A stretch of 64,000 nucleotides of DNA from Bacteroidia bacterium (GCA_018058135.1 JAGPCK010000011.1:6-64005); one strand, 5' to 3'. Shown: positions 1,231 to 18,662, counted from the stretch's first letter. Numbers and translations are program-made. The notes: generated from the letters alone by a model not told the origin.

Positions 1231-1240
1231 TGACGACTCT

Positions 1241-2305: not shown

Positions 2306-3038
2306 TGTTACGTATTAGTTGCATAAGTTCAGGTATGCCCATGGTATAGTTTCCATCGGTAATAAAATTATAATTATAGGGCTGAGTGTACCATGCATTG
2401 ATATTCATGGCCAGTGTAAGTCGGCTTGTTTTATTTTGTTCAACAGTAAGCAGAATGTTCAATGGCTGATGACGTACCAAAGCCGCGTTAGTGCCCAAGT
2501 GCATGGCATAACCTTTGGGTGCACCGTTGGTATTCAGGTATTGTCCTTCCAGTTTAAGGAAGTGGTACCCGCCACCCATTACATCGGGCCAGCTCATGTT
2601 TATGTTGTCCAACGTATTGGGCAAACTGTACGATTGGTTGGTAAGTGAATCTAACCCGATTAAAAACTGAATGGAAGTATATGTGCCGACAGGAATATGC
2701 GGTAAGGTAATTTTTTCGTCACCACGTGTCGCATCTATGTAATGAAATCCTTTAGTGAAAACTGTTTTTCCTGTGGCTGTTTTTAATACGGCATTGGAAA
2801 GGTAGTACTGCAGCCGACTTACACTGTAGTAGTTTCCGGCCGCATTCTGATAAATCAGCGAGTCGAAAAGGAGTGCCTCTCCATCCACTTCATGTGTGAT
2901 GTTCAGTTGCACATTTCCGGTGCTTAAAAAATCGGTTTCCTCTTTGTCGTTTTTGCACGAGTAAAAGAAAAACTGATTGACCAAAAGTAAGGCCAGTTGT
3001 GCCATAAGTACCAACGGGGTTTTTATTCCGGAATTCAT
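2277..3038 (-). CDS. MbnP-family putative copper-binding lipoprotein
   Basis: Lipobox FYSC; SRLQYYLSN, FLIGLD and GYHFLKLEG are MbnP-type segments; overlaps the MbnH-like gene. Confidence 0.75.
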   Translation of the reverse strand: MNSGIKTPLVLMAQLALLLVNQFFFYSCKNDKEETDFLSTGNVQLNITHEVDGEALLFDSLIYQNAAGNYYSVSRLQYYLSNAVLKTATGKTVFTKGFHYIDATRGDEKITLPHIPVGTYTSIQFLIGLDSLTNQSYSLPNTLDNINMSWPDVMGGGYHFLKLEGQYLNTNGAPKGYAMHLGTNAALVRHQPLNILLTVEQNKTSRLTLAMNINAWYTQPYNYNFITDGNYTMGIPELMQLIRNNGKDVFETR

Positions 3039-3072
3039 AACTCAAAGTTCCTTTGTTATATGGGCATATTCG

Positions 3073-3086
3073 TTGACTTTGGTCAA
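3073..3086. promoter_or_regulatory. FNR-type operator TTGAC-N4-GTCAA (site 1)
   Basis: TTGACTTTGGTCAA has perfect 5-bp arms and lies in the divergent mbnP/nadA gap. Confidence 0.75.
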
Positions 3087-3137
3087 GGTTTTTGTGGTTC
3101 ATACATCGGGATATTGCAGCGTTTAAAATGATATGAC

Positions 3138-4103
3138 ATGCCGCAAGCAGATGTGAAGATGAAGTACAACCGCATTCAGCAGTTGAAAAAAGAAAAAGAT
3201 GTAACCTTACTGGCCCACTACTATATGCCTGCCGAGTTGCAATGTAAAACCACACAAGGGGGCATTGCTGATTATGTGGGTGATTCACTCGGTTTAAGTG
3301 TAGAAGCACAAAACACCCCCGCCCGCAATATTTTATTTTGTGGTGTACGTTTTATGGCCGAAACAGCTTTGGTTATTAACCCCGGTAAAAATGTTTTTAT
3401 GCCCGATGTATCCGCAGGCTGTTCACTGGCTTCCAGTATCTCTGCTCAGGATGTACGTGATTTAAAAAAGCAATATCCCGGAGTGCCGGTAATGGGCTAC
3501 ATCAATACGTATGCAGAAACGAAAACCGAACTGGACATTTGCTGTACTTCCAGAAATGCAGTAGCCATTGCTTCATCGCTGGAGGGCGACCGGCTTATTT
3601 TTGTTCCCGATTTGTACATGGGGCAAAATTTGAAACGCGTAATTGAAAAACAATGCGGCAAAGAACTTATTCTTTGGAAAGGTACCTGTGAAGTGCATGA
3701 GCAGTTTAACAACGCTATGGTAGAAGTGGAAGATGGTGATACAGAAATTCTGATGCACTGGGAGGTGCCGGGTGATACCGTGAACACGCAGCTGTCGAAA
3801 CGCAAAGGCATAGTAGGCAGCACGGGAGATATTCTGCAGTATGTTCAACAAAGTAAGGCCACCAAATTTCTGCTTGCTTCAGAATGTGATTTAGGAGTGG
3901 CACTGAAAGAAATGAATGCCGGTAAGGAATTTATTACCCCCTGCATTAAGTGTGCATACATGAAACAAAATACACTGGAAAAAGTACTGCAGGCACTGGA
4001 AGCAATAGGTACAACAGAAGAAGCTAACTACCGCATTACGCTGGATGAGGAGGTATTGCAGAAAGCGCGTAAGCCCGTGTTGCGGATGTTAAATTATAAC
4101 TAA
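3138..4103 (+). CDS. nadA: Quinolinate synthase A
   Basis: LLAHYY, GDSLGLS, FCGVRFMAE, and three [4Fe-4S] Cys (AGCSLA, GTCEVH, CAYMK). Alternative start at ATG 3159. Confidence 0.95.
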   Translation: MPQADVKMKYNRIQQLKKEKDVTLLAHYYMPAELQCKTTQGGIADYVGDSLGLSVEAQNTPARNILFCGVRFMAETALVINPGKNVFMPDVSAGCSLASSISAQDVRDLKKQYPGVPVMGYINTYAETKTELDICCTSRNAVAIASSLEGDRLIFVPDLYMGQNLKRVIEKQCGKELILWKGTCEVHEQFNNAMVEVEDGDTEILMHWEVPGDTVNTQLSKRKGIVGSTGDILQYVQQSKATKFLLASECDLGVALKEMNAGKEFITPCIKCAYMKQNTLEKVLQALEAIGTTEEANYRITLDEEVLQKARKPVLRMLNYN

Positions 4104-4109
4104 GCAAGA

Positions 4110-5639
4110 TTGAAATATTCGAAACGCATCATTTGTGCAGGCAACGGATTGGCTGCATTAAATCTGGCCCTGCACCTGGCCGATGATACCGAGTTACTCA
4201 TTCTGGCTGCTGCTGATTTTTCAGCAAGTAACAGTTACCTGGCCAAAGGAGGTATTGCCATTCCGCTGCAGGAGGAAGATTCCGAACGCCATATACAAGA
4301 TACGTTAATAGCAGGTGATGGCTTGTGTGATGAAGCTGTAGTAAGGGAACTGATTCACGAAGCTCCGGCTGTGGTAAACATGCTCCGGCATTTCGGTTTA
4401 AATTTTGATTCGAGCCTTTCCCGTGAAGGCGGACACAGTTGTGCACGTATTCACCATGTAGCCGATGAAACCGGACGGCACGTAGTAAAAGCATTGTATC
4501 AATACGTAGTACGTAAAAAGAACGTTAAAATTCTCACCGCTCATCACCTGTTGAGTTTGTACATGGATAAAGGTGTTTGTGCAGGTGCCGTTGCCGGAGA
4601 CTCCGTTACACAAAAAGTAAAGTTGATTACAGCCGATGCCGTAGTGCTGGCTACTGGTGGTTGCGGTAATCTGTATCACTACCACACCAATGCCCCTTTT
4701 GCCAACGGAGAGGGTTATGCCATGGCTGAGCGGGCAGGTGCGCGTTTGGCTGATATGGAGTTTGTACAGTTTCATCCCACGCGTTTGTATGACCCGTTGT
4801 TGCAACATCACTTATTGATTACGGAAGCTTTTCGCGGGGCAGGTGCGGTATTGCGCGACCACACCATGCGCGATCTGATGGCAGGTGTACACCCGTTGGG
4901 TAGTCTGGCTCCTCGCGATGTGGTGAGCCGGAGTATGCACACCTGCATGAAGGAATCGGGACATGATTTTCTGTGGCTCGATTTTTCCAAAGTGGATATG
5001 GAACTAATGCAAAGTGATTTTCCCGCATTGTTTAGTATGTGTACACAAAAGGGATTTATGAAAAATAAACGCATACCGGTAACACCTGCTGCGCATTACA
5101 TGTGCGGAGGAGTTGTGACCGATACGTTCGGGGCTACCACCGTTCCGGGATTATATGCAGTTGGTGAAGTGGCCCGCACCGGTTTGCATGGAGCCAACCG
5201 CTTAGCCAGTAATTCCCTGATGGAGCTGTTGGTTATATCCAAACGACTGGCTGAGCGCCTGAATGAAACAGGTACGGTAAACAAACACAAAACGGTTGAA
5301 CTGCCAACCACAGCTGAGCACCCTCATGCGGTTTATGCTGACCCTGTTTTACGTAAAGTGAAACGCATTATGTGGGACTATTTTGGTATAGTCAGAAATG
5401 CAGTATCCATGCAACACGGTTTAGAGGAATTGTATCAACTGGAAGCCTGTTTGCCACCATTGTCGCACACGGCAGATATTACACTGCAACAAACCCATCA
5501 TGCCGTTCATGCAGCTACGTTGATTGCCCGCAGTGCAGTGGTGCGTAAAGAAAGCAAAGGATGTCATTGCCGGGAAGATTTTTCAGTAACGCACGGCACT
5601 TCAGTAAAAGAACAGGAGAATCTGATAGATATCAGTTAA
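4110..5639 (+). CDS. nadB: L-aspartate oxidase
   Basis: EGGHS, QFHPT, LAPRDVV, HYMCGG and GLHGANRLASNSL motifs; 6 bp downstream of nadA. Confidence 0.93.
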   Translation: MKYSKRIICAGNGLAALNLALHLADDTELLILAAADFSASNSYLAKGGIAIPLQEEDSERHIQDTLIAGDGLCDEAVVRELIHEAPAVVNMLRHFGLNFDSSLSREGGHSCARIHHVADETGRHVVKALYQYVVRKKNVKILTAHHLLSLYMDKGVCAGAVAGDSVTQKVKLITADAVVLATGGCGNLYHYHTNAPFANGEGYAMAERAGARLADMEFVQFHPTRLYDPLLQHHLLITEAFRGAGAVLRDHTMRDLMAGVHPLGSLAPRDVVSRSMHTCMKESGHDFLWLDFSKVDMELMQSDFPALFSMCTQKGFMKNKRIPVTPAAHYMCGGVVTDTFGATTVPGLYAVGEVARTGLHGANRLASNSLMELLVISKRLAERLNETGTVNKHKTVELPTTAEHPHAVYADPVLRKVKRIMWDYFGIVRNAVSMQHGLEELYQLEACLPPLSHTADITLQQTHHAVHAATLIARSAVVRKESKGCHCREDFSVTHGTSVKEQENLIDIS

Positions 5640-5644
5640 GGTGT

Positions 5645-6058
5645 TCAGCGATTCTCCCATTCCGCATAACAGGACTCTGTTTCGTAAAGACGAAGGCGCA
5701 TAAGAGCAATGTGCTGAGGTAAAAGCGGTTTTATTTTTTCTACCATGTAGCTCAGTAAATACTCGGCAGTTGGCTCACCATCAATCCAACAGATTTTGTT
5801 CACCAGGTTTTTGGTAGCAGAGAGATTGATGGTATTGCGTTTAAGCAGCAAGGAGTGGTCAAAGTCTTTGAGAATGCTGCTCTCTACAATTTTTTTCAAA
5901 TCCTTAAAATCGAAAAGAATATTGTTTTCATTAAAATTGGTGCCGGTTACGGTGACGTGTAGTTTGTAGCCGTGGCCATGTATTTCCCTGCATGAGCCGT
6001 TGTAGCCTGAAATAGCATGAGCCGCTTCAAACTGAAATATTTTTGTAACGCTAATCAT
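5645..6058 (-). CDS. queD: 6-carboxytetrahydropterin synthase (QueD/PTPS family)
   Basis: FEAAH, CxxxHGH, DFxDLK, DH, PTAE and LYET motifs. Confidence 0.9.
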   Translation of the reverse strand: MISVTKIFQFEAAHAISGYNGSCREIHGHGYKLHVTVTGTNFNENNILFDFKDLKKIVESSILKDFDHSLLLKRNTINLSATKNLVNKICWIDGEPTAEYLLSYMVEKIKPLLPQHIALMRLRLYETESCYAEWENR

Positions 6059-7232
6059 CGGAATATTGTCTACGTTTCATTTCTTTTTTGAGCATGTCGA
6101 GTTCGCGGTTCATTTGTCCGTTTACGGAGGTGTTTTCTTCAGCCCTGCGCATCAGGTAAGGGATGGCTTTTTCTACCTCGCCATAGGGCAAATATTTGGA
6201 AGCATGGTACCCATGAGCCGCCAGATTAAACGTGATGTGGTCGCTCATACCGTACAACTGTGAGAATTGCAATTTCTCCATCGGGTTGGTAACGTTGTAA
6301 CTCTTCAGGCAGTCAATGGCATATTGAACGCTTTCTTCATTGTGAGAAGCAATACAGGTAACCACCACATCATGATTTTGAAGACAAATTTCCGTGGCGG
6401 TGTTAAATGATTTATCTGTATCCGATTTTTTTTCAAACACCGGATTGGGTAAGCCAACCTCCGCAGCATGTCGGGTTTCTTTTTCCAGATAAGCTCCACG
6501 TACCAGTTTAATGCCGCATAAATACTTGTATTGTCGTGCCCGTGCAATGGCTGCTTGTAAATACGCTACTCTGTCGGTGCGGTACATTTGCAGGGTGTTG
6601 AATACAATTACCTTTTCGTGGTTAAATTGTTTCATCATTTGTTCGGTTAAGGAATCAATCACCTCCTGCATCCAGGTTTCTTCCGCATCAATGTACACCA
6701 TAATATTTTTTTCAGCAGCAGCACGGCAAATATCTTCAACGTGTTTTCTAAAACGGTTGTATCGGTTTTGTTGTGTCCCGCTCAGTTGATTGTGGGTGTG
6801 ATTAATTTGTGTGAGAAAATCAGGGTCTTCCAATCCTGTAAGTTTTACACTGATAAAATCTGCTTTTGTTCCGTTGACCTCAGCGTTGATGTTTGCAATT
6901 ATTTTTTCAGCATTGCGGCTGAAAGCTTCTTCACTTTTTTCGCCTTCCGATACATAGTCTAAAACAGCCATTACATTGTAATCGTGCAGGTGACGTATGG
7001 TTTGAAATGCTTCGGCTTCATTTTCTCCCGAGCAAAAAACCTTAAATACAGTAGAGCGGATAATTCCTTTGAAAGGCAGGTTGTATTGAAGAATCAGTTT
7101 GGCTGCATACGAGAGTATTTTTACCAACCAGGGGTAATGAAGCAAGGTAAACACCAGTTGGGTGAAACGTATTTCTTTATCCGTTTTGTGGGCATAAGCG
7201 GTTTTAAGTTCATTAAATGATAGCGTACTCAT
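6051..7232 (-). CDS. Monofunctional proline dehydrogenase
   Basis: IDAEE, NTLQMYR, KLVRGAY, ASHN, QLYGM and YLMRRAEEN motifs. Confidence 0.92.
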   Translation of the reverse strand: MSTLSFNELKTAYAHKTDKEIRFTQLVFTLLHYPWLVKILSYAAKLILQYNLPFKGIIRSTVFKVFCSGENEAEAFQTIRHLHDYNVMAVLDYVSEGEKSEEAFSRNAEKIIANINAEVNGTKADFISVKLTGLEDPDFLTQINHTHNQLSGTQQNRYNRFRKHVEDICRAAAEKNIMVYIDAEETWMQEVIDSLTEQMMKQFNHEKVIVFNTLQMYRTDRVAYLQAAIARARQYKYLCGIKLVRGAYLEKETRHAAEVGLPNPVFEKKSDTDKSFNTATEICLQNHDVVVTCIASHNEESVQYAIDCLKSYNVTNPMEKLQFSQLYGMSDHITFNLAAHGYHASKYLPYGEVEKAIPYLMRRAEENTSVNGQMNRELDMLKKEMKRRQYSDD

Positions 7233-7233
7233 G

Positions 7234-8634
7234 TTATGCGAATTTTATCTCAGTGGATGTTTTTTCTTTTTTACGTGTTACCTGTTTGCGTTGTTTAATG
7301 TTGCAGGTAACGTAATTGCGCAGCAGCACAATAGCTAGTATGCCTAAGGTGATCATCAGTACAACACCTGAATACACAAAAAGCAGGAACCAGTTACTCA
7401 GTCCGCTCATCATAGTGCTGAAGGAAGTGGTAGTATTCCCCATTTGCCACAGTCCTTTTTCTATACCGGCTGCGTTAAGGGAGAACCAGAAAATAAACAA
7501 AGCTACTTGTGTGCCCCAAAAAGAAATGTTCAGCCATTTTTTATTTGCTTCAGCGGGATAGCAACCGGTGTTTAGGAATTCAAAACAAGCGGCCAGCAAT
7601 ATCATGGTGTTGATGCCGATGGTTGTTCCCATAGCATGAGCAACGGTAACGTGAGTACCGTGTGTATACAGATTAAGAGCAGGTACGGACATGATAATGG
7701 CCTGTCCCATGTTGATGAATACCCACAGTTCAGAAGCCATTAAAAAACGATACGGGAAGTAGTGGTAGTGCTTTTGCATGCTACTTATACTTTGTTTCCA
7801 GGTGTAAATGATGCGAGCAAAGAATATCCATTCCGTCATACTTACGGCATAACCTACATAACGTACATATGCATCGGTAGGAAGGGTGTAAACGTGGTGC
7901 CCCCAGTTAAACATGAGGTTAAACAATCCCAGAAAATACATGGCAAAAGAGAGTTTGCTGTAAGCCATTTTTTTATCCCCGCTTATTTTTTCCATCAGGA
8001 ATATAGCAGTGCCGTAAAGCAGTTGGTTCCATGAACCTACCAGCGAACCATTGGCTTTCCATTGAATGGTCATGTCGGTTACAAAGTGTTCGCGGAAGTA
8101 AGGAAATAACCAGAGATAGTTTTCGATAAAGGTGAAAAGGAAAAATACCAAACCGGTCATCCACATCCATAAGTATACGGGCCATTGCCGGATGGTTTTT
8201 GCCACTTTGATAAAGTTGATTATAAACATCAGCCAGGATATAGCAATAGGCAACGCAGGCCAAGGATTAAACTCCCAGTATTCTCTGCCGCCAAAATTGC
8301 TGTGCAGGTAATTGTAAAAAATCCAAACGATGGCAATTATCCATAAGGCCAGTTGTACTACAGCGATTCTGGCTGAAAGCAGGTGTCCGTATTTATGCCA
8401 CAACCCGCTGTACACGCAACCTGTTGCACCCAGTATAATCCAGAACAAAACGGAGGAAACGTGCATGGGGCGCAGCGCAGAAAAACCCACAGCAGAGTTC
8501 TTCCACAAGTCGGGATAGAGGTAACTGTGTGCTGCGGTTACACCTAAGCCTAATCCCAGCAATAGCATCAGCAGTGCCAACGCCAAAAATGTTTTAGCTA
8601 CAGGTTGAATAGTGTTAGTCATTTTGTTGTTCAA
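7234..8634 (-). CDS. Heme-copper oxidoreductase large subunit, NorB-like with non-canonical ligands (nNOR-like)
   Basis: About 12 hydrophobic segments; RPMH (H58), GREY, WGHH (H246/H247) and HGTHVTVAH (H333). The canonical HLWVEG aligns with NGSLVG and the canonical HxH with HAM. Confidence 0.8.
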   Translation of the reverse strand: MNNKMTNTIQPVAKTFLALALLMLLLGLGLGVTAAHSYLYPDLWKNSAVGFSALRPMHVSSVLFWIILGATGCVYSGLWHKYGHLLSARIAVVQLALWIIAIVWIFYNYLHSNFGGREYWEFNPWPALPIAISWLMFIINFIKVAKTIRQWPVYLWMWMTGLVFFLFTFIENYLWLFPYFREHFVTDMTIQWKANGSLVGSWNQLLYGTAIFLMEKISGDKKMAYSKLSFAMYFLGLFNLMFNWGHHVYTLPTDAYVRYVGYAVSMTEWIFFARIIYTWKQSISSMQKHYHYFPYRFLMASELWVFINMGQAIIMSVPALNLYTHGTHVTVAHAMGTTIGINTMILLAACFEFLNTGCYPAEANKKWLNISFWGTQVALFIFWFSLNAAGIEKGLWQMGNTTTSFSTMMSGLSNWFLLFVYSGVVLMITLGILAIVLLRNYVTCNIKQRKQVTRKKEKTSTEIKFA

Positions 8635-9034
8635 TCATTCCGTTCCACAATGTTTTGTAGGATGTGGGTCGTCCGTTTCCGGTAGCATCTGCTGCCCTTA
8701 GAAATGCCAGCAGCCGGGTAAGTTCTTCATCGGTTAAATCGAACACGGGCATTTGTTTGTTACCGCTTTTGAGTAAGGCATGAATGTAAGTGCTGTCTTT
8801 ACCGGGTGACGACATCAGGTTAGTTAAATCGGGTCCCAGATAGCCACCTAATCCATAGAGCTGGTGGCAACTCTGGCAGTTGTATTTTTGCCATACCAAA
8901 CGGCCTTCTCCGGCTTGTGAATTTGCAAGTTGCAATTCAGTTGTATGGCGTAACGGAGCAGTATAAATAGAGAAAGAATAGGCCAGAAAAAGCACACACA
9001 AAACAACAAAAATATGTCGCGGATGAATTTTCAT
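8615..9034 (-). CDS. NorC-like membrane-anchored monoheme cytochrome c
   Basis: N-terminal TM helix; GRLVWQKYNCQSCHQLYGLGGYLGPDLT matches the NorC pattern; Met in KQMP; overlaps the NorB-like gene. Confidence 0.85.
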   Translation of the reverse strand: MKIHPRHIFVVLCVLFLAYSFSIYTAPLRHTTELQLANSQAGEGRLVWQKYNCQSCHQLYGLGGYLGPDLTNLMSSPGKDSTYIHALLKSGNKQMPVFDLTDEELTRLLAFLRAADATGNGRPTSYKTLWNGMIEQQND

Positions 9035-10416
9035 AATTGCTCGAAACGTGCCTGAAAGAATCTTAAATATTTAGGTTCGTAGACCATTTTTAAGCCTTTG
9101 ATTTTGTCTCTGCGCTCCAACACAGCAGCAGCTGATTCGGCAATTACATCCATGTGTGCCTGTGTATATACCCTGCGCGGAATGGTGAAACGTACCAACT
9201 CCAGTTTAGGATAATAATTTTCTCCGTTGGCTTTTCTTCCGGCTGAAACAATGCCACGTTCCATGGTGCGCACACCTGAGTCAATATAAATTTCAGCAGC
9301 CAGTGTTTGTGCAGGAAACTGGTCTTGGGTAAGGTGAGGCAAAAATGCTTTTGCGTCTACAAATATGCCATGTCCGCCAATTGGCTTCACAATAGGGATA
9401 CCGTATTCTTCCATTCGATGCCCCAGGTATTCTACCTGACCTACACGTGCCTTCTGGTGATGGTCGTCAACACTTTCACCAATGCCCACTGCAATAGCTT
9501 CCATGTCTCTTCCTGCCAATCCGCCATAAGTATGCAAGCCTTCATATACTACTACCATATTGCGTGCTTCTTCATACACGTCCCATTCATTGGTGGCCAT
9601 AAATCCGCCAATGTTTACCAGGGCATCTTTTTTGGCACTCATGGTAGCACCGTCAGTGAGTGAACAAATTTCCTTCACAATCTCTTTCACTGATTTTGTG
9701 CTGTAACCTTTTTCGCGCTGTTGAATGAAGTACGCATTTTCAGCTACACGGGTCATGTCGTGTATAATACGTATACCGTGTTTTTTGGTATAGGCTCTCA
9801 GCTCTTTCAGATTTTTGATGCTGATAGGCTGTCCGCCTGCCATGTTTACATTGGTGGCAATGCTCACATACGGAATTTTTTCAGCTCCGTATTTTTTTGC
9901 CAGAGCTTCGAGTTTATTCAGGTCAACGTTACCTTTAAAAGGATGTTCGTTGAGCGGGTCATGTGCCTCATCAATGATAATATCGTGGAATTTTCCTCCG
10001 GCCAATTCCTGGTGCAGACGGGTAGTAGTGAAATACATGTTTCCCGGAACGATGTCTCCTTTTTTGATGAGAATCTTTGACAGAATGTTTTCAGCACCAC
10101 GACCCTGGTGTGTGGGGATGATGTATTTGTAACCGTAATACTTCTGAATAGCGGCCTCCATTTTATAGTAGCTGCTGCTGCCCGCATAGGCTTCGTCACC
10201 TAACATAAAGGCACTCCATTGGCGGTCACTCATGGCATTGGTTCCGCTATCGGTTAGCAGATCAATGTATACATCTTCTGAACGAAGTAAAAAGGTGTTG
10301 TATCCTGCTTCTTTCAGGGCCTTTACCCGTTGGGTACGTGTGGTCATTTTGAGCAGTTCAATCATTTTCATTCTGTAGGGCTCGGCCCATGAACGTTTGA
10401 TCAGTTGTTTTTTCAT
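9031..10416 (-). CDS. tpl: Tyrosine phenol-lyase
   Basis: DLLTDSGT and PLP Lys motif MSAKKD, with TPL-type specificity motifs GNMYFTTT and LRFF. Confidence 0.9.
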   Translation of the reverse strand: MKKQLIKRSWAEPYRMKMIELLKMTTRTQRVKALKEAGYNTFLLRSEDVYIDLLTDSGTNAMSDRQWSAFMLGDEAYAGSSSYYKMEAAIQKYYGYKYIIPTHQGRGAENILSKILIKKGDIVPGNMYFTTTRLHQELAGGKFHDIIIDEAHDPLNEHPFKGNVDLNKLEALAKKYGAEKIPYVSIATNVNMAGGQPISIKNLKELRAYTKKHGIRIIHDMTRVAENAYFIQQREKGYSTKSVKEIVKEICSLTDGATMSAKKDALVNIGGFMATNEWDVYEEARNMVVVYEGLHTYGGLAGRDMEAIAVGIGESVDDHHQKARVGQVEYLGHRMEEYGIPIVKPIGGHGIFVDAKAFLPHLTQDQFPAQTLAAEIYIDSGVRTMERGIVSAGRKANGENYYPKLELVRFTIPRRVYTQAHMDVIAESAAAVLERRDKIKGLKMVYEPKYLRFFQARFEQL

Positions 10417-10433
10417 TTTTAGTGGGATTAATT

Positions 10434-10886
10434 TTACTCCTCAACAGTTTTAGCAGCCAGTTGAATATTTATTTTTAAAGAAGTGGTTGATTTAATAGAG
10501 TTGGAAATGAGGCAGGCTTTTTCGGCTTTCACCAGTATACGTTCTGCCTTTTCTCTGTCTTCTTCATTGCTCACCGTGAGGGTAGGTTCCAACTCTACGT
10601 GTGTCATGGCGTATCTGCCATCGGCTTTGGTCAGTATGCCTCTCGATTTACATTCAAAATCGATGTACTCAAATTTAGAAAACTCGGCAACAGCCAAAAA
10701 AGTTGTCATGAAACAGCTATTCACTGCTGCGGTAAACAAGTGTTCAGGCGACCATATTCCGTGCATGCCTCCGTTGAATTCAGGTGGTGTAGCAACAGTA
10801 ATGTGTTCATTTATTCCAGGAGCTTTCATGGTTCCTTTTTTTAGTTCCAGCCAGTTGATGCTTACTTCATATTCGTGTGATTCCAT
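10434..10886 (-). CDS. OsmC/Ohr-family protein
   Basis: SPEHLF..AVNSCF and AEKACLISNS supply the two conserved Cys. Confidence 0.9.
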   Translation of the reverse strand: MESHEYEVSINWLELKKGTMKAPGINEHITVATPPEFNGGMHGIWSPEHLFTAAVNSCFMTTFLAVAEFSKFEYIDFECKSRGILTKADGRYAMTHVELEPTLTVSNEEDREKAERILVKAEKACLISNSIKSTTSLKINIQLAAKTVEE

Positions 10887-10897
10887 GTGTAGGTAAA

Positions 10898-12283
10898 TTA
10901 TATTTTTTCAAATTTGGCAGTGAAGTGTCTTAAGAAAGGTGGTTCATAGGTTATGCGGTAACCGTGCTGTTGTTGGCACATGTCTAGAATGTCGTCAAAT
11001 ACATCCAGTACATAATCAATGTGGCTTTGTGTGTATACTCTTCTGGGAATAGCTAAACGTACCAGTTCATTTTTGGCCGGCACCAGTTTACCGTCTTTAT
11101 CGTAATGCCCGAACATTACACTGCCCACTTCCACACAGCGGATGCCGCCTTTGATGTACAGGTCGCACACCAAAGCCTGTCCCGGATATTCTTCCACAGA
11201 TATGGCCGGGTACAATTTTTTAGCATCAATGTAAACGGCATGTCCGCCAATGGGCCACACTACCGGAATACCTTTGGCTTTGAGGTGTTCACCCAGATAA
11301 GCGGTGCTTCGAATGCGGTAGTGCAGGTAATCGGCATCAAACACTTCTTTTAGTCCGATGGCAAGCGCTTCCATGTCTCTGCCCGATAAACCACCGTAGG
11401 TAGAAAAGCCTTCAGAGATAATGAGTAGGTTGGTACATTTGCGGGCCATCTCTTCATCGCGCAGGGTAAGCAATCCACCCATGTTTACGAGTCCGTCTTT
11501 TTTTGCGCTCATCACAAAAGCATCACCCAAACGCAACATTTCTTTGGCAATTTCTTCGTAGGTTTTGTTTTCATAGCCTTGCTCACGGTGTTGTACAAAG
11601 TAACTGTTCTCTGCAATACGACAGCCGTCTATCACCAGGAGCAATCCGTGTTCGTTACATATTTTGCGCAGGCCTTTTACATTGGCCATGCTCACCGGTT
11701 GGCCACCTGAGGAGTTGTTGGTAACGGTAATAATTACTGCGGCAATTTTTTCTTTACCGTACTCTTTGATGAGTTCCTGTAGTTTATCTAAGTCGATGTT
11801 TCCTTTAAAAGGTAAATCAGCCTGCGGGTCCAGTGCTTCTTCAGGCAGAATATCAATGGCTGTTGCTCCTGTAAATTCTATGTTGGCTCGTGTAGTATCA
11901 AAGTGTGTATTGCTGATGAATATTTTATCGGGTCCGCCCAATAGGCCATACAAGATGCGCTCTGCTGCACGGCCCTGGTGGGTGGGTAAAATGTAAGGCA
12001 TGCCGGTAAGTTCTTTTACCACACTTTCCAAGTGCACCCAACTTCTGGCACCGGCATAACTTTCATCTCCCATCATAATGCCACTCCATTGTTTGTCACT
12101 CATGGCACCGGTTCCGCTATCCGTGAGCAGGTCAATAAATACATCATCAGAGCGTAAAAGAAACGGATTGTTTCCTGCTTTTTCCAGAGCAGTTTTGCGG
12201 TATTCTTCTGTAGTAATTTTGAGCGGCTCCACCATTTTTATTTTAAACGGCTCCGCCAGCGTACGTAATCTGTTATTCTCCAT
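10898..12283 (-). CDS. tnaA: Tryptophanase (tryptophan indole-lyase)
   Basis: DLLTDSGT and MSAKKD, with tryptophanase-type motifs SNTHFDTT and LRHFT. Confidence 0.88.
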   Translation of the reverse strand: MENNRLRTLAEPFKIKMVEPLKITTEEYRKTALEKAGNNPFLLRSDDVFIDLLTDSGTGAMSDKQWSGIMMGDESYAGARSWVHLESVVKELTGMPYILPTHQGRAAERILYGLLGGPDKIFISNTHFDTTRANIEFTGATAIDILPEEALDPQADLPFKGNIDLDKLQELIKEYGKEKIAAVIITVTNNSSGGQPVSMANVKGLRKICNEHGLLLVIDGCRIAENSYFVQHREQGYENKTYEEIAKEMLRLGDAFVMSAKKDGLVNMGGLLTLRDEEMARKCTNLLIISEGFSTYGGLSGRDMEALAIGLKEVFDADYLHYRIRSTAYLGEHLKAKGIPVVWPIGGHAVYIDAKKLYPAISVEEYPGQALVCDLYIKGGIRCVEVGSVMFGHYDKDGKLVPAKNELVRLAIPRRVYTQSHIDYVLDVFDDILDMCQQQHGYRITYEPPFLRHFTAKFEKI

Positions 12284-13151
12284 TCGTTGTATAGTTGATT
12301 GTATTCAAATAATTTTTAAGTGATTCTTCCCACTGCGGCATCAGGTTAACACCTCTGCGTTTAAGAAGTGAATTTTCTAATACGGAATATTTGGGACGGG
12401 CAATTTTTGCAGGGAAATCCAATGAGTTGGCACTGTGTAATTTTACATCAGTATTGCTGTTGCGGAAAATGGCATCAGCAAATTCATACCAACTGCATTG
12501 TCCTTCAGAGGTCATGTGTGTAATTCCCTGCACATCGCTCGACAATAAGCGGGTTAACTGATTAGCCACATCAGCTGTAGCCGTGGGGGAAACAAATTCA
12601 TCATTTACCACCCGTACTTCCCCTTTTTCACGTGCGAGTTTCAGCATCAACTGAATGAAGTTTAGTCCGTTTTTTGCCCTGCACGGATGTGTGCCGTATA
12701 AAGCAGATACCCGGGCAATCATGTAATCACCTCCTTCTGCTTCAATCTTTTTTTCACCCATCAGTTTTGATAGACCGTAAACGTTTAACGGAGTGGCATT
12801 ATCTGATTCAGCATACGGTTTGTTTTGTTTACCGTCAAAAACATAATCGGTGCTGATGTGAATGAATCGTGCACTTCTGTACCGACACATGCGTGCCATA
12901 AACCCTGGTGCATCAGTATTGATTCGTTTGGCCATGGCCATATCCTTTTCGCAGGCATCTACATTGTGGAATGCTGCGGTATTAATAACTACCTGAGGTT
13001 GCACGCGCATAATCTGATTTTTTACTTCCATCAGATTGCCGATATCCAAGTCTTCGTGAGTTAAGCCGATTACGTCCTGACCGGCATTGGCCATGGAGGC
13101 TACAATATCAGCACCCAGTTGGCCATTTGCTCCTGTTACTAATATTTTCAT
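12273..13151 (-). CDS. rmlD: dTDP-4-dehydrorhamnose reductase
   Basis: GANGQLG, HISTDYVFDG, YGLSK (YxxxK) and RPKYSVL motifs. Confidence 0.92.
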   Translation of the reverse strand: MKILVTGANGQLGADIVASMANAGQDVIGLTHEDLDIGNLMEVKNQIMRVQPQVVINTAAFHNVDACEKDMAMAKRINTDAPGFMARMCRYRSARFIHISTDYVFDGKQNKPYAESDNATPLNVYGLSKLMGEKKIEAEGGDYMIARVSALYGTHPCRAKNGLNFIQLMLKLAREKGEVRVVNDEFVSPTATADVANQLTRLLSSDVQGITHMTSEGQCSWYEFADAIFRNSNTDVKLHSANSLDFPAKIARPKYSVLENSLLKRRGVNLMPQWEESLKNYLNTINYTTNGE

Positions 13152-14137
13152 GCGGTGAGAGTAAGGGAGTCAGACAACATTATTTTTTGGAATACATTGA
13201 TGTTGTAGTATTTTTCATCATCAAAGTTGCGGAATAAATCCACATGCTCATGTAGGTCACTGAGAATATCCAAATCATTTTGTAGAGGATTAAAGTTTAA
13301 GAGTTGTTTTGCTTTATCTGTACTTACCTTGTAGTTGCGGTAATCTTGTTTTTCCAGGTTTTTCACTGATATGTCGATGCCATATTTTTCTTTGATGAAG
13401 CTTACTACAGACAAAGCCAGCTCTCCGATGGTAGCGTTGAAGGAGCTGATGTTGAAAATGTGTCCACCGTTCAGCATGGCTTCAATGCCGTTGTGGTAAG
13501 CCACACACAAATCATTTAATCCCAAAACAGGCCGCCATATTTTATTGTTGCTGAGTGTGATTTCTCCTTTTTGAAGGGCGTTTTTGAACATGGTATTCAT
13601 GGCCAGATCTAACCGCATTCTGGGGCTGTATCCGCTCACAGTTCCTTGTCGGAAGCAGAGGACGGAAAAATTTTCATCGGCTATAGCCAGCAATGTTTGT
13701 TCACCCTGTAGTTTAGATACACCATAAGGATAGTTGCTCACTGCAATATCCTGTTCAGTAAATGTTCTGTTGTGTGTGTAGCCGTATACAGAGCAGGAAC
13801 TGGCAAACAGCATACGTTTTACTTCGGCATCTTTGGCAATGTAACCGATGTAGGCTGGCAGAGCAGTATTGTAAATGAAATTGGCTTTCGGGGAAAACTC
13901 CGCCATCGGGTCATTGGATAAGCCGGCCAGAAAAATGATGGCATCATAAGGAGCTACATCCTCCGGTTGCAGGTTAAAAATATCCATTTGCTTCACCGGA
14001 ATATCATCGGGCAAACTGTTGCCGAACCAGCACAGGTCAACCACATCAATATCGTATCCTGCTCTTTTAAGGTAAGGACATAATACACTGCCGATATATC
14101 CGCAGCCGCCCAGTACCAATATTTTTTTCTTGCTCAT
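13148..14137 (-). CDS. NAD-dependent nucleotide-sugar epimerase/dehydratase (extended SDR)
   Basis: GGCGYIG, ASSCSVYG and YGVSK motifs. Confidence 0.88.
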   Translation of the reverse strand: MSKKKILVLGGCGYIGSVLCPYLKRAGYDIDVVDLCWFGNSLPDDIPVKQMDIFNLQPEDVAPYDAIIFLAGLSNDPMAEFSPKANFIYNTALPAYIGYIAKDAEVKRMLFASSCSVYGYTHNRTFTEQDIAVSNYPYGVSKLQGEQTLLAIADENFSVLCFRQGTVSGYSPRMRLDLAMNTMFKNALQKGEITLSNNKIWRPVLGLNDLCVAYHNGIEAMLNGGHIFNISSFNATIGELALSVVSFIKEKYGIDISVKNLEKQDYRNYKVSTDKAKQLLNFNPLQNDLDILSDLHEHVDLFRNFDDEKYYNINVFQKIMLSDSLTLTA

Positions 14138-14145
14138 GGTGTTGT

Positions 14146-14709
14146 TTATTTAATCAAATTTGATGCAGGTGTGTTTAACCATTGGGCCAATGTTAGAGCG
14201 GTTGAATCTTTTGCCGAGAGCACAGGTGTAATGTCGGGCCACTCAATGCCCACCTCCGGATCGTTCCATAAAATACCTGATTCAGCTTTGTTGCTGTATA
14301 TGCCGGTACACTTGTACTGTATTTCGGCAAAGTCGCTGGTTACACAAAACCCACGTGCAAATCCGGCAGGCGCCCAAACCATTTTTTTATTTTTAGCTGA
14401 TACGTATTCTCCGTACCACTGCCCCAATGATGGAGAGTTTTTGCGAATGTCAACAGCAACCAGAAAAGCTTCTCCCACTGTAACGCGCATCAGTTTGCCC
14501 ATAGGAGGTTCCCATTGAAAATGTAACCCACGCACCACACCATACGAGGAGCGGGAGTGATTGTCCTGCACAAATTCATCTGTTATGCCCAATGTTTGGA
14601 ATTGATCTTTACGGTATACTTCAGTGAAGAAGCCTCGATCGTCTTCGAATACTTCAGGTTGTAACACCATCAGTCCGTTTAATGCTTCGTTAATCAGTTG
14701 AATATTCAT
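14146..14709 (-). CDS. rmlC: dTDP-4-dehydrorhamnose 3,5-epimerase
   Basis: FEDDRGFF, QDNHSRS, RGLHFQ and VDIR motifs. Confidence 0.93.
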   Translation of the reverse strand: MNIQLINEALNGLMVLQPEVFEDDRGFFTEVYRKDQFQTLGITDEFVQDNHSRSSYGVVRGLHFQWEPPMGKLMRVTVGEAFLVAVDIRKNSPSLGQWYGEYVSAKNKKMVWAPAGFARGFCVTSDFAEIQYKCTGIYSNKAESGILWNDPEVGIEWPDITPVLSAKDSTALTLAQWLNTPASNLIK

Positions 14710-15751
14710 AAGGAGTATAGTTTTTTAATTGAGTGCAGGTCTTTCTTTTTTTGCCGAAGTATTCCCACACGATGCTGCCATTGTACAGAAAACGTTTTAC
14801 TTCGTTATCAGTAACCGTACGCATACGTTGCACCGATTTTCTTTTACGTAGAATAAGAAGAGGATTTAACAGTAACCACGCATGGGCCTTCAGTATTCCG
14901 CCAACGGTCGTGAAGTCGCGCTGGAGCAGTGATTGTGCGATAACAATATAATCGAGCAGAAAGTGAACCGGTACATATCGCAATACGTTTTTGCATTCGT
15001 AGTTCTTGAGCATAATGTATAAGGAGTTGCGGTGGTTCCAGTATACCTTCCTGAAACTTTTTGTTTGAATGGTGGCACCTCCTATGTGATGAATAACAGA
15101 AAGCGGTTGTACCACCGTTTTGAAACCACACATTCTCATGCGCCAACACAGGTCTATTTCATCCATGTGGTGAACGATGGTTTCGTCCAGTGTGTCGGTT
15201 ACCTCCAATGCTTCTTTGCGAATGAACATGGCTGCCCCGCTGGTCCAGAAGATTTCGCTTACATCATCGTATTGTCCGTTGTCCTCTTCTATGGTGTTGA
15301 ACAACCTGCCACGTAGAAAGGGGTAGCCGAAAACATCCATCATGCCACCTGATGCACCGGCATATTCAAATTTTTTGTTATCAAAGTAGGAAACAATTTT
15401 GGGTTGAATGGCCGCAATTTTTTCATCCGACTCGGCCAGTTGTACCAGGTGTTCTATCCACTGCGGATGTACGGTTACATCATTGTTGAGGCAGATAAAG
15501 TATTTTCCTTTGCCTGCGGAGAAACCTAAATTGTAGGCTGCACAATATCCGTTATTCAGTTTGTTCTGAATAATATTGATTTGCGGGTAGTGTTGTTTGA
15601 GCCAGCTTACGTCATCATCTGTTGATGCGTTGTCGAGTACGTGTATCTTTTTGTTGGGATAGCTGCAGTTGATAACAGAATCAAGGCATTCTTTCAGGAA
15701 TTTTTTGCCATTGTAATTCAGTATCACCACATCTGTTTCCGGGTACTCCAT
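14690..15751 (-). CDS. Glycosyltransferase family 2 (WbbL-like, possible rhamnosyltransferase)
   Basis: VILNYNG, DNAS, CLNND, SGAAMFIR and EIDLCWR motifs. Confidence 0.88.
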   Translation of the reverse strand: MEYPETDVVILNYNGKKFLKECLDSVINCSYPNKKIHVLDNASTDDDVSWLKQHYPQINIIQNKLNNGYCAAYNLGFSAGKGKYFICLNNDVTVHPQWIEHLVQLAESDEKIAAIQPKIVSYFDNKKFEYAGASGGMMDVFGYPFLRGRLFNTIEEDNGQYDDVSEIFWTSGAAMFIRKEALEVTDTLDETIVHHMDEIDLCWRMRMCGFKTVVQPLSVIHHIGGATIQTKSFRKVYWNHRNSLYIMLKNYECKNVLRYVPVHFLLDYIVIAQSLLQRDFTTVGGILKAHAWLLLNPLLILRKRKSVQRMRTVTDNEVKRFLYNGSIVWEYFGKKRKTCTQLKNYTPYEYSTD

Positions 15752-15801
15752 AACGCTCGTTTTTGATTCTTCGAAATACGGGCGGGAGCAACGTTGAAAA
15801 G

Positions 15802-15815
15802 TTGACCTTAGTCAA
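15802..15815. promoter_or_regulatory. FNR-type operator TTGAC-N4-GTCAA (site 2), upstream of the 11-gene operon
   Basis: TTGACCTTAGTCAA lies 50 bp upstream of the GT2 start. A variant, ATGATATTGGTCAC, follows at 15824-15837. Confidence 0.75.
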
Positions 15816-15836
15816 CATACTACATGATATTGGTCA

Positions 15837-16544
15837 CTAATCTTCAGTAGAAGACAGTTCGAGCAACTTGTTTTTGTTAAGAATGCGAATTTGTTTTTTA
15901 ATGAGTTGGATGAGTCCTTCTTCATCCCACTGATGTAGTGTGCGCACAGTGGTTTCCACCGCTATGCCGGTTATTCCGGCAATTTCTTCGCGGGTAAGGT
16001 GTATATTAATATAGCCTTCTTCTGTTTTGCCAAAGGATTGTTCCAGCAGAAGTAAGGTTTCAGCCAATCGCTCTTTGCTTGATTTTTGTAACAGGTTAAG
16101 TGCCCTGGTTTCAGCGTCACTGGTGTCGGCTGCAATCTTTGACATGATGTCGAGCGTAAAGTTTACGTTATGGGTAATAAACTCCAGAATTTTTTCTTTG
16201 GGAATAAAACAGATGATACTGTCTTCCATAGTTTCAGCAGTGGCAATGTAACGCCCGTTGCCCAATAAACCCCTGTAGCCTATCAGATCAGCTGATTTGG
16301 CTAAACGCACAATTTGTGTGCTTCCGTCATTCAGTGTTTTGTATAGTTTTACTTTCCCATCGTGTACACAATGCAATCCTTTTACTATATCGCCTTCGTG
16401 AAAGAGAATGTGCTTTTTCTTTACCTGAAAAGTGGTTTTGTGCTGATTGAGTGACTCCAGTTCATTCATGCGCAGGTTGCAAAAAGCTGAGGTGGCTTTG
16501 TGCTGGCAGCTGATGCAATCAATGGTATGGACTGTTTTTTTCAC
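15837..16544 (-). CDS. fnr: FNR-type Crp/Fnr regulator with N-terminal Cys cluster
   Basis: CISCQHKATSAFC plus an internal Cys (DSIICFIP), cNMP-binding fold and HTH (LTREEIA..ETTVR). Probable GTG start at 16544; the ORF track extends to 16667. Confidence 0.85.
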   Translation of the reverse strand: MKKTVHTIDCISCQHKATSAFCNLRMNELESLNQHKTTFQVKKKHILFHEGDIVKGLHCVHDGKVKLYKTLNDGSTQIVRLAKSADLIGYRGLLGNGRYIATAETMEDSIICFIPKEKILEFITHNVNFTLDIMSKIAADTSDAETRALNLLQKSSKERLAETLLLLEQSFGKTEEGYINIHLTREEIAGITGIAVETTVRTLHQWDEEGLIQLIKKQIRILNKNKLLELSSTED

Positions 16545-16653
16545 CGGAGTTACTTTGGTGCAAATATGTATAAATAAAGCCAAATATCTTTTTTCATTTT
16601 TATGATGCGGGTGATAAGCTGCATGGTGCCGGGAAATTTTTTGACAAAAAACA

Positions 16654-16667
16654 TTGACGCAGGTCAA
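16654..16667. promoter_or_regulatory. FNR-type operator TTGAC-N4-GTCAA (site 3)
   Basis: TTGACGCAGGTCAA lies in the divergent gap between fnr and the ~604-aa gene. Confidence 0.75.
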
Positions 16668-16737
16668 TTTTTTTGCAGGATAAATGGCGGTTTATTGACG
16701 GGTTTTAGTTTGAAGTATACTCTTGTCATTTAAAAAT

Positions 16738-18552
16738 ATGCACCACACTTTTCATATCCCTGTTTTGGGTTTAGCTTACTCCGTTGATACGCCTGTTAAA
16801 GTGGCCCGTTTCGGAATTTCATCTGTAGTTTCAGTTATTCAGCATGAGTTACTGGAGCAGATGCGCAAATTTCACAGCAGTCAATACAACCTTCCTTATA
16901 TGGAGATTACCGCCAAAGAGATTGATTTCAGAGCAAAGCGGGTAAAAGCCTATTTGAATATGTTGCAGGAGATTGTGAGCTTGCAACTCAATAAACTTAG
17001 AGCTGAAGCGTTTGAGGCCGATACGGATATTACCAACTACTTTAAAATGTTACCGGAGAAAAGTACCCTGAAAAAAATGTACTGCGACATGACTACTGCT
17101 GTGGGGGAGATGAAAGAAAACTTGTGTGAGAAGCTGAGGCAACAAATTACTGCCGGTAGTATTGATGTGAACATCATGACCAAAGTTGATAACCTGAATT
17201 ACGCTGCTGACGGGGAAACACTGCTGGCTCCTGAGTACTCGGATGCGTTATCTGCCTTACGTGGTTTTGCACAAAGTAATCTGGAGAGTTCGGTAGTTTT
17301 TTCAGCCGGTCTAAACCCCAAGCTTTACAGTTATATTGATACCTTTCCTGATTTTTTTCCTGATGAAAACGGACACCTGAAAAAGAAAATTATTCTTAAG
17401 GTGAGTGACTACCGCTCTGCATTAATTCAGGGTAAATTTCTGGCTAAAAAAGGAGTATGGATTTCTGAGTTCCGTATTGAATCAGGACTTAATTGCGGAG
17501 GACACGCTTTCGCCACTGATGGCTATTTACTTGGCCCCATTTTGCAGGAGTTTAAAGATAAACGGGAAGAGCTAAATGCAGAGTTGAAACAAACCGTAAA
17601 TGCTGCCTTAGCTGCAAAAAATCAGCCCTTGTTGCCATCAGCAATTCATGCACGTGTTACTGTTCAAGGTGGTATAGGCACAGGAGCTGAGGACGAATTT
17701 TTACGAGATTTTTACGGGGTAGATGCTACCGGATGGGGTAGTCCGTTCTTATTGGTGCCTGAAGCTACCAATGTAGATAATGATACGCTTCAGGGTTTAG
17801 CCACTGCACAACCTGATGATTATTACCTGAGCCATGCCTCTCCGTTGGGAGTACCATTTAACAATTTCAGAAAAAGCTCAGCGCAAAAATTACGTAATGA
17901 ACGCATGGAAAAAGGTCGTCCGGGTAGCCCGTGTTATAAAAAGCACCTCACCTTTAATAAAGAGTTTACAGCAGCACCTATATGTGAGGCATCACGGCAG
18001 TATCAGCACCTCAAGTTGCAGCAGCTGGTCGGTGAGGGGTTAACACCTGAAGCATTTAAAAAGCGAGTAGAGGAGATAACAGAAAAAGATTGCCTGTGTG
18101 AAGGACTTTCAGCAACCGCATTGCTCAAGAATAATATACCTGTGCCCCGTAACCTTACCGCAGTAACTATTTGCCCGGGCCCTAATCTGGCTTTCTTTTC
18201 CGGTGTGTTTACACTGGCTGATATGGTGGGGCATATTTACGGAAGAAAAAATTTGCTCAATCAGGTTTATCGCCCTCACATGTTTGTTAATGAACTGAAG
18301 ATATACATCAACTACCTGCAAACGGAAATTCAAAAAAGTTTACCGGAGCCTTCAGAGAAGCAGAAAAAATACTTCAAAAGTTTTTATGATAACCTGCAGC
18401 AGGGTATAGCATATTACCGCAGCATCATAACTCAGGCGGCACAGGATACGAAAGAAACATACCACACTTGGGTAAAAGATGTGGGTGAAGCCGAAGCCTC
18501 ACTGTTGCTCATCTTTGCAACCAGTGAAGGTGATACCTCTGTTTTGGTGTAG
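16738..18552 (+). CDS. Hypothetical protein, possibly a nitronate-monooxygenase/FabK-like FMN enzyme with extra Cys
   Basis: Long ORF (ATG 16738; track TTG 16723) containing ESGLNCGGH, VQGGIG, GWGSPFL, CLCEGL and ICPGPN. Confidence 0.6.
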   Translation: MHHTFHIPVLGLAYSVDTPVKVARFGISSVVSVIQHELLEQMRKFHSSQYNLPYMEITAKEIDFRAKRVKAYLNMLQEIVSLQLNKLRAEAFEADTDITNYFKMLPEKSTLKKMYCDMTTAVGEMKENLCEKLRQQITAGSIDVNIMTKVDNLNYAADGETLLAPEYSDALSALRGFAQSNLESSVVFSAGLNPKLYSYIDTFPDFFPDENGHLKKKIILKVSDYRSALIQGKFLAKKGVWISEFRIESGLNCGGHAFATDGYLLGPILQEFKDKREELNAELKQTVNAALAAKNQPLLPSAIHARVTVQGGIGTGAEDEFLRDFYGVDATGWGSPFLLVPEATNVDNDTLQGLATAQPDDYYLSHASPLGVPFNNFRKSSAQKLRNERMEKGRPGSPCYKKHLTFNKEFTAAPICEASRQYQHLKLQQLVGEGLTPEAFKKRVEEITEKDCLCEGLSATALLKNNIPVPRNLTAVTICPGPNLAFFSGVFTLADMVGHIYGRKNLLNQVYRPHMFVNELKIYINYLQTEIQKSLPEPSEKQKKYFKSFYDNLQQGIAYYRSIITQAAQDTKETYHTWVKDVGEAEASLLLIFATSEGDTSVLV

Positions 18553-18644: not shown

Positions 18645-18662
18645 TTATGATTGCAGTCATAA
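18645..18662. promoter_or_regulatory. Second-type Crp/Fnr-like operator TTATGAT-N4-GTCATAA upstream of the nos cluster
   Basis: TTATGATTGCAGTCATAA has perfect 6-bp arms; a near-identical site occurs at 26291. Confidence 0.6.

Follow-up and report, generated by a model that had tools for sequence, protein, structure and literature searches.

Three TTGAC-N4-GTCAA palindromes as likely operators of a small local FNR-type regulon in a Bacteroidota genomic island

A 64,000-nt stretch of DNA (here called the window) from a Bacteroidota draft genome (G000; 3.02 Mb, 127 contigs) contains three identical palindromes of the form TTGAC-N4-GTCAA, two of which flank the gene of a regulator of the Crp/Fnr family. 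The consensus recognized by FNR is TTGAT-N4-ATCAA. The locus raises the question of whether these palindromes are operators, which protein would bind them, and to which signal the genes beside them would respond. We consider it likely that the three are operators of the Crp/Fnr regulator encoded between the second and the third. Judged by comparison of genomes, the boxes are real and conserved operators, placed in the class II position, and make up a small local regulon; we infer the identity of the binding protein, activation rather than repression, the metal cluster and the signal. The elements at the center of the argument are as follows.

3073..3086: box 1, TTGACTTTGGTCAA, an exact match in the divergent promoter region between mbnP (leftward) and nadA (rightward)
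15802..15815: box 2, TTGACCTTAGTCAA, an exact match, the predicted proximal operator of an 11-gene operon
16654..16667: box 3, TTGACGCAGGTCAA, an exact match in the promoter of a gene for a protein of 604 amino acids (aa), between the divergent regulator and 604-aa genes
15837..16544, minus strand: the island FNR-type regulator (P0001), with a probable GTG start at 16544

A first-pass annotation of this DNA had reported the three identical boxes, and the report holds. Matches to the pattern TTGACNNNNGTCAA are exact at all three places, all six half-sites read TTGAC, and there is no fourth match elsewhere in the window, where 0.12 are expected by chance (the mean of 100 dinucleotide-preserving shuffles, which gave one match at most and never three). 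Over the whole G000 genome there are five copies, where base composition predicts 3.5. The genome-wide motif scan proposed by the first-pass annotation showed that the two copies outside the island lie inside long open reading frames (ORFs), and that the three island boxes are the sole intergenic copies in G000. The probability of three of five random sites falling within 13.6 kb is 6.6e-4, and that of all three boxes being intergenic is about 5e-4. Their intergenic position was described correctly: a mechanically called ORF started at a TTG (15837-16667) runs over box 3, and this is an artefact because conservation of the protein sequence starts near the GTG at 16544.

Two sister genomes were available, G002 (99% complete, with a regulator 100% identical to that of G000) and G004 (83% complete). 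Each carries exactly three copies of the pattern genome-wide, all at the orthologous places, and for this reason the motif is exclusive to the island locus; the reversed pattern, used as a control, has six copies in G002 and four in G004. Box 1 is identical in both sisters, and box 3 differs from theirs solely in the N4 spacer. Measured from the center of box 1, the start codon (ATG) of mbnP is 41.5 nt away and that of nadA 58.5 nt. Box 2 is 22 bp past the stop codon of the regulator gene and 51 bp before the GT2 glycosyltransferase gene that opens the operon, its center being 57.5 nt from the GT2 start. No wider regulon of perfect or one-mismatch boxes was convincing in G000: about 8% of the 78 one-mismatch copies are intergenic, the same as background. 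A regulon of the canonical TTGAT-N4-ATCAA boxes was likewise rejected for this genome, as the pattern has six copies there and the single intergenic one abuts a gene start.

The GTDB family of G000 was represented by 119 species genomes, 29 of which, in 9 of 17 genera, have an ortholog of the regulator (43 to 68% identical); those relatives that carry names are Chitinophagales-like metagenome-assembled genomes (MAGs). The orthologs form a clade of their own (support 100/97), apart from the FNR proteins linked to the cbb3 oxidase. The layout regulator, box, GT2 and rmlC recurs in about 19 genomes of nine genera. The island accompanies the regulator with varying content, usually beside nosZ; its variable parts are cytochrome c with a NorB-like oxidase, the 604-aa gene, PTPS, nadAB, mbnPH, lyases and sugar genes. 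The conservation of the box in orthologous promoters, another check suggested by the first-pass annotation, was examined in the promoter directly downstream of the regulator gene, that of the GT2-rmlC operon, and a proximal box of the TGAC-N4-GTCA type was present in 18 genomes.

These 18 genomes give 14 distinct proximal sequences, in which T2, G3, A4, T11, C12 and A13 are invariant, C stands at position 5 in 12 and G at position 10 in 13, a yTGAC-N4-GTCAr type. The six TTGAC half-sites of the window are therefore no accident, since C5 and G10 are conserved in the operators of the clade. The outer pair is mostly T/A, with C/G in one monophyletic clade. In that clade, genus g3 (L138, L139, L141-L145 and L042; helix LATETIIR), the operator CTGAC-N4-GTCAG replaces TTGAC-N4-GTCAA, a single co-change of regulator and operator at the outer base pair. 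An unbiased count of 4+4 palindromes, with no motif assumed, was made over the intergenic DNA of 10 orthologous islands, the coding DNA being about 5.7 times as abundant. TGAC-N4-GTCA came near the top, with 14 intergenic copies (in 9 of the 10 genomes) against one coding; TGAT-N4-ATCA had 16 intergenic and five coding. The nadA/mbnP intergenic regions of G028, G003, G001 and G035 carry TTGAY-N4-RTCAA boxes, in G120 and G142 the 604-aa gene is still preceded by a box at 65 to 73 nt, and genomes of clade II have a single TTGAC box, which adjoins the island regulator.

The distance between box and promoter is also fixed. The flavobacterial sigmaA -7 box, TAnnTTTG, spans -12 to -5 (PMC9723704). 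The islands offer 33 oriented box-to-gene cases; 13 of these have a TTTG beginning at offset 26 from the box and 18 have one beginning at offset 25, 26 or 27, where the background is 0.63 per offset. The same offset of 26 was found at 57 of 67 phased boxes around 75 paralog loci (L045-L119, from Flavobacterium, Chitinophaga and Ignavibacteria). Given this phase and a -7 box at -12 to -5, with its G at -5, the box would span -48 to -35 and be centered at -41.5 relative to start sites predicted from the -7 phase. This is the class II activator position of FNR and CRP. The geometry would thus hold for the unusual -33/-7 promoters of Bacteroidota, and should be useful for annotating promoters and regulons in the phylum. 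In the window the -7-like elements are these.

3043..3050, minus strand: GAACTTTG, for mbnP, in phase at offset 22-29 after the box
3109..3116, plus strand: GGATATTG, for nadA, a weaker match with its G in phase
15772..15779, minus strand: GTATTTCG, for the GT2 operon, in phase
16690..16697, plus strand: GTTTATTG, for the 604-aa gene, in phase

The first-pass annotation had the boxes fronting five transcription units, including the regulator gene itself. The gene content was described correctly, and four of the units (mbnP, nadA, GT2 and the 604-aa gene) have an in-phase -7-like element. No such element lies in phase from box 3 toward the regulator gene. Across G000, G120 and G142, box 3 keeps a steady distance of about 65 to 77 nt to the 604-aa gene, while its distance to the regulator gene ranges from 104 to 292 nt. 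Because of the -7 phase and this spacing, four transcription units are supported and direct autoregulation is not. Most orthologous GT2 promoters have TATTTCG at the same offset. In these GT2/rml promoters TA stands one base closer to the T-run than it does in TAnnTTTG, and the element recalls the SM5 promoter class, which is linked to lipopolysaccharide biosynthesis genes (PMC9723704).

The regulator itself, with the sequence features MKKTVHTIDCISCQ...SAFC...IICFIP...AVETTVR, has the two-domain architecture of Crp/Fnr proteins (cNMP_binding PF00027, 72 bits; HTH_Crp_2 PF13545, 57 bits). Its first match in the PDB is 2gau, an uncharacterised Porphyromonas Crp/Fnr protein, followed by Aliivibrio fischeri FNR (64 bits), ahead of DNR (3dkw; 41 bits) and FixK2. 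FNR holds its cluster with C20, C23, C29 and C122, and its recognition helix reads E209-x-x-S212-R213. In the alignment to A. fischeri FNR, IICFIPKE stands opposite MVCEIPYE, which puts C114 at the C122 position, and AVETTVR stands opposite TVETISR, with the Glu and Arg kept and Val in place of Ser212. The FNR-like cysteines and the ETTVR helix noted earlier were thereby borne out. A comparison of 10 relatives shows C12, C15 and C114 in all and C24 in at least 90% of them, and the regulator probably holds an O2-labile, NO-reactive [4Fe-4S] cluster (NO, nitric oxide).

The helix cannot serve as the mark of shifted specificity for which it had been taken. Val or Ile stands at the Ser212 position, as ET(x)(V/I)R, in every relative examined from Bacteroidota and the Fibrobacteres-Chlorobi-Bacteroidetes group, whatever box lies nearby. 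The motif does not explain the TTGAC box, since the cbb3-linked paralogs beside ATGAY-N4-RTCAT boxes share it. No single residue of the helix-turn-helix domain tracked either the outer base (T versus C) or position 5, and clade III differs by its combination of residues alone.

Is the consensus, then, a variant? The conservation of C5 and G10 sustains that part of the earlier claim; its novelty does not stand, and strict discrimination between C and T is doubtful. TTGAC-N4-GTCAA is the published HcpR1 motif, wyTTGACnnnnGTCAArw, whose box precedes hcp, frdX and norB in Geobacter, Desulfuromonas, Desulfotalea and two cyanobacteria, with norB among the targets in Synechocystis; the Bacteroides-type HcpR2 box is GTAAC-N4-GTTAC (Rodionov et al. 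2005, PMC1274295). The Pseudomonas Anr box has been written TTGac-N4-gtCAA (PMC4974557).

Taken together, the clustering of the boxes, their exclusivity in three genomes, their recurrence with the regulator in about 19 to 29 genomes and their class II phase uphold the proposal that a small local regulon is linked to the Cys-bearing Crp/Fnr regulator encoded beside it. Several observations weigh against it. The best NCBIfam match, Fnr (NF008365), scores 84.2 bits where its cutoff is 228. The N-terminal motif is CxxC-x8-C, the spacing in FNR being x5, and the third cysteine (C24) is lost in the orthologs of G030, G097, L043 and L044. The nadA/mbnP, nosZ and fasciclin promoters of other genera have TTGAT or mixed half-sites, and one orthologous promoter box is the perfect E. 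coli consensus, TTGATGATTATCAA; strict discrimination between C and T is therefore doubtful. One clade uses CTGAC-N4-GTCAG, and any specificity code is tentative. The intergenic regions of G000, G002 and G004 are at least 95% identical, so that footprinting among these three is uninformative. The nadA and 604-aa -7-like elements are imperfect (TATTG), and the geometry at mbnP would mean that the mRNA has no leader or that the start codon lies farther downstream. Finally, a co-resident FNR paralog may cross-bind the boxes.

The genes fronted by the boxes bear on what such a regulon would do.

1241..3038, minus strand: mbnP-mbnH-like pair (Pfam MbnP 112.9 bits, CCP_MauG 106.5 bits)
3138..5639, plus strand: nadA-nadB, for quinolinate synthase and L-aspartate oxidase (Pfam NadA 291.7 bits, FAD_binding_2 270.8 bits)
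5645..15751, minus strand: 11-gene operon, with ORFs overlapping or at most 17 nt apart
16738..18552, plus strand: 604-aa protein with no assigned family; the start may be the TTG at 16723

The 11 genes encode, in order, a GT2 glycosyltransferase, an RmlC-like protein, an epimerase, an RmlD-like protein, a tryptophanase-like lyase, an OsmC-like protein, a tyrosine phenol-lyase, cytochrome c, a NorB-like haem-copper oxidase, a proline-dehydrogenase-like protein and PTPS. The closest solved relatives of the oxidase are NorB structures, 4xyd and 3o0r. The mbnH-like gene scores 202 bits with the MbnH-family model, below its cutoff. The 604-aa protein has no relative in Pfam, NCBIfam or the PDB, and its gene co-occurs with the regulator in G120, G067, G142, G034, G003 and G001. 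Past it lie a cytochrome c-nosZ-nosLDFY operon, a fasciclin gene, genes for a 405-aa membrane protein and for Crp2 (a Cys-less Crp/Fnr protein at 27561-28154), an Rrf2 regulator and then the Fe-S repair protein RIC (28904-29635), which has no TTGAC box in the window. The regulon would tie the 604-aa protein, the atypical NorB-like oxidase operon, the MbnPH-like pair and nadAB to control by low oxygen or NO. In the literature searched we found no characterised FNR-type regulator of Bacteroidota, and members of this phylum are major carriers of clade II nosZ.

We propose that the regulator is a Bacteroidota FNR paralog which, with its cluster intact, would bind each box as a dimer and, from about -41.5, would activate a sigmaA-type promoter by the class II route. 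Its direct targets would be the mbnPH-like pair, nadAB, the 11-gene operon with the NorB-like oxidase and the 604-aa gene. The regulon would be strictly local, with three operators per genome, in an accessory island for hypoxia and nitrogen oxides beside nosZ. The nadAB pair is an accessory part of this island, and nadA is absent from 13 of 15 near-complete genomes of the family that lack the regulator. The kynurenine route to quinolinate needs O2 and the NadA/NadB route does not, so control of nadAB by an FNR-type activator makes sense for anoxic life. NadA and NadB could supply quinolinate when O2 is missing in an organism that would also have the O2-dependent route: on contig C65 of G000 (910-3601) a kynureninase gene (TIGR01814, 460 bits, above cutoff) adjoins one for an FAD-dependent aromatic monooxygenase, whose best named match is VioC-like (220 bits, below the cutoff of 760) and which is possibly kynurenine 3-monooxygenase-like. 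This kynureninase operon is preceded by a box of a second class, CTGATAAATATCAG, described below.

The signal would be O2 or NO. An alternative that we regard as unlikely keeps the same operators and regulator and makes the signal nitric oxide or nitrosative stress, the regulator being a functional analogue of HcpR, DNR or NnrR. It draws on the identity of the box with that of HcpR1, found before hcp, frdX and norB (PMC1274295), on the NorB-like oxidase of the operon, and on a position beside nosZ, an Rrf2 regulator and RIC; the cbb3-linked FNR already present in the genome could moreover cover O2 sensing. A further pointer to nitrogen oxides is RIC in G030, G097 and L044, where it lies behind TTGAC boxes and is paired with the orthologous regulator. 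In G030, G097 and a related MAG (L037 10045, L044 11458, L146 2961) the regulator ortholog is convergent with RIC, which is preceded by TTGAC-N4-GTCAA at 55.5 nt upstream; L044 has a perfect -7 box, TATTTTTG. The Fe-S cluster of FNR also reacts with NO. Known FNRs are, however, inactivated rather than activated by NO, and the conserved FNR-like Cys set, with its counterpart of C122, speaks for a sensor of the Fe-S type. The match to DNR is weaker than that to FNR (41 against 64 bits), no hcp gene lies behind any box, and induction of nadAB fits anoxia better.

It is considerably less probable that the main protein on the boxes is another member of the Crp/Fnr family in the same cell, the second FNR paralog or Crp2, and that the adjacent regulator uses another or overlapping site, such as the distal ATGAT-type box near box 2. 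The second paralog, on contig C16 of G000, has the motif CxxC-x10-C and the helix ETVIR and groups in the tree with cco-linked Flavobacterium proteins. The recognition helix reads E-T-x-(V/I)-R in all three proteins, tandem boxes at a 22-bp spacing hint at two binding events per promoter, and orthologous promoters swap TTGAY-type and ATGAY-type boxes. Against this, Crp2 has orthologs in only three of nine island genomes tested, and the C16-type paralog occurs in 56 of 61 relatives, with or without the island. The C16-type neighborhood and the cbb3 promoters bear ATGAY-N4-RTCAT rather than TTGAC-N4-GTCAA, perfect intergenic TTGAC boxes are confined to the island, and the single TTGAC box of clade II adjoins the island regulator.

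The second class of boxes on which this alternative turns is represented in the window by three sites.

15824..15837: second-class box, ATGATATTGGTCAC, the distal partner of box 2 at a spacing of exactly 22 bp, with its predicted center at -63.5
18647-18660: second-class box, ATGATTGCAGTCAT, before the cytochrome c-nosZ operon, in the correct phase
26293-26306: second-class box, ATGACCTCAGTCAT, before the fasciclin gene, in the correct phase

The nosZ and fasciclin boxes have an in-phase xAnnTTTG 23 nt downstream, and the ATG at 18710 is the probable true start of the cytochrome c-nosZ operon. Genomes that lack Crp2 have TTGAY boxes instead in the orthologous nosZ and fasciclin promoters. Crp2 was rejected as the general binder of this class on its distribution given above, and the family-wide FNR paralog is the likelier binder. 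The tandem of a distal ATGAT-type and a proximal TGAC-type box at 22 bp recurs in G120, in G142 and in the whole g3 clade, and also at several promoters of G003, G001, G035 and G030. Such pairs are very frequent, 22 bp from start to start (also in L033, L036, L037, L128, L130 and L138-L145), with AT-rich spacers in the distal ATGAT-N4-ATCAT type and GC-rich spacers in the proximal TGAC-N4-GTCA type.

The cbb3-linked paralogs adjoin ccoI-ccoS-ccoNO-ccoP and are flanked mostly by ATGAY-N4-RTCAT boxes, of which ATGACAAATATCAT (Flavobacterium) and TTGACGCATATCAT (Chitinophaga) are examples. The loci of 80 more distant homologs have few TTGA-N6-TCAA sites and belong to the other paralog class with ATGAY boxes. 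The ccoNO promoter of G000 carries ATGACCAAAATCAG. This sequence lies outside the window, on contigs C27 (about 9150-9250) and C34 (about 2500-2600); ccoI-ccoS-ccoNO is present on the two contigs with slightly different sequence, which suggests strain heterogeneity or a collapsed duplicate in the MAG. The three island boxes all have T..A as the outer pair, and this is chiefly what sets them apart from about nine other phased boxes of G000, not one of which has it. A separate local regulon, of one gene, lies elsewhere in that genome (contig C9:4855-5937): after the gene of a further small regulator of the Crp/Fnr family comes TTGATATATGTCAA, which precedes an SRPBCC-domain gene by 57.5 nt and has a -7 element in phase.

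The least credible view, to which we give next to no weight, is that the palindromes are chance matches, hairpin terminators or repeat remnants: although box 3 lies in a longer hairpin of an A-run and a T-run (z = -4.6) and the genome-wide count of five is close to the 3.5 expected, this view is largely refuted by the comparative evidence of clustering, intergenic position, exclusivity, conservation across genera and fixed promoter phase, and the flanks of the three boxes have no extended similarity to one another. A terminator reading of boxes 2 and 3 was rejected, as box 3 lies between divergent genes with nothing to terminate and the hairpin of box 2, which lacks a T-run, is no better than shuffles (z = -0.7). 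The longer palindrome around box 3 occupies 16641-16675 and reads CAAAAAACA-TTGACgcagGTCAA-TTTTTTTG; additional TTGAC half-sites begin at 16641 and 16696.

The boxes as operators of the adjacent regulator may also be part of a larger scheme, which we offer as a doubtful possibility. ATGAY-N4-RTCAT with TTTG at offset 26 looks like a phylum-wide FNR box with class II geometry, of which we found no description in the literature searched. Bacteroidota might have an FNR code of their own, in which an ancestral cbb3-linked FNR acts on ATGAY-N4-RTCAT at -41.5 and, in one family, a paralog recruited to the island acts on TTGAC-N4-GTCAA or, within one clade, on CTGAC-N4-GTCAG. The outermost pair and position 5 would separate the two Fe-S regulators, and at some promoters the two would be combined on 22-bp tandems, at -41.5 and -63.5. 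If this were true, the tandem sites would integrate two redox or NO signals.

How the locus compares with known systems depends on the feature chosen. Like FNR (E. coli and A. fischeri, PDB 5e44), the regulator has a two-domain Crp/Fnr fold with an N-terminal Cys cluster, a Cys aligned with C122 and a recognition helix with E and R, and its presumed site is a 14-bp palindrome of the TTGA-N6-TCAA type predicted to be centered at -41.5, a class II position. It differs in having CxxC-x8-C where FNR has CxxC-x5-C, Val for Ser212, C/G rather than T/A at operator positions 5 and 10, and a score far below the NCBIfam Fnr cutoff; there are three operators here, whereas FNR has a global regulon, and the promoters are of the -33/-7 kind of Bacteroidota. 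With HcpR1 the locus shares an identical operator consensus, a small local regulon by the regulator gene and targets related to nitrogen oxides. In contrast to HcpR1 systems, the island lacks an hcp or frdX target (every perfect box in G000, G002 and G004 was traced, and not one stands before either gene), and its regulator has an FNR-like Cys set.

Crp/Fnr paralogs that share FNR-like boxes are also known from the ANR-DNR and FnrP/NNR/NarR systems of denitrifying proteobacteria and from Pseudomonas putida with its several FNRs, where each paralog takes a part of the respiratory, denitrification and stress genes. The present locus resembles these in having several Crp/Fnr paralogs per cell and, for Anr, in the box TTGac-N4-gtCAA. 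Here, however, two paralogs both have Cys clusters, the tandem sites lie exactly 22 bp apart, and the difference between the boxes seems to lie chiefly in the outermost base (T versus A/C) and position 5. DNR and NnrR respond to NO through haem and have no Fe-S Cys cluster; the island regulator differs from them in its conserved Cys set and in its weaker similarity to DNR than to FNR. Of the features of a nir/nor/nos regulon, the NorB-like oxidase is in the operon of box 2 and the nosZ operon has a different box before it. There is likeness in family, E-T-x-(V/I)-R helix and -41.5 phase to the uncharacterised cbb3-linked FNR-like regulators of Flavobacterium, Chitinophaga and Ignavibacteria, which differ in forming a separate clade, in adjoining ccoI/ccoS/ccoNO and in having boxes mostly with an outer A. 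The box sequence and the idea of a local Crp/Fnr regulon are already known, and this locus is a new example of a familiar type of switch.

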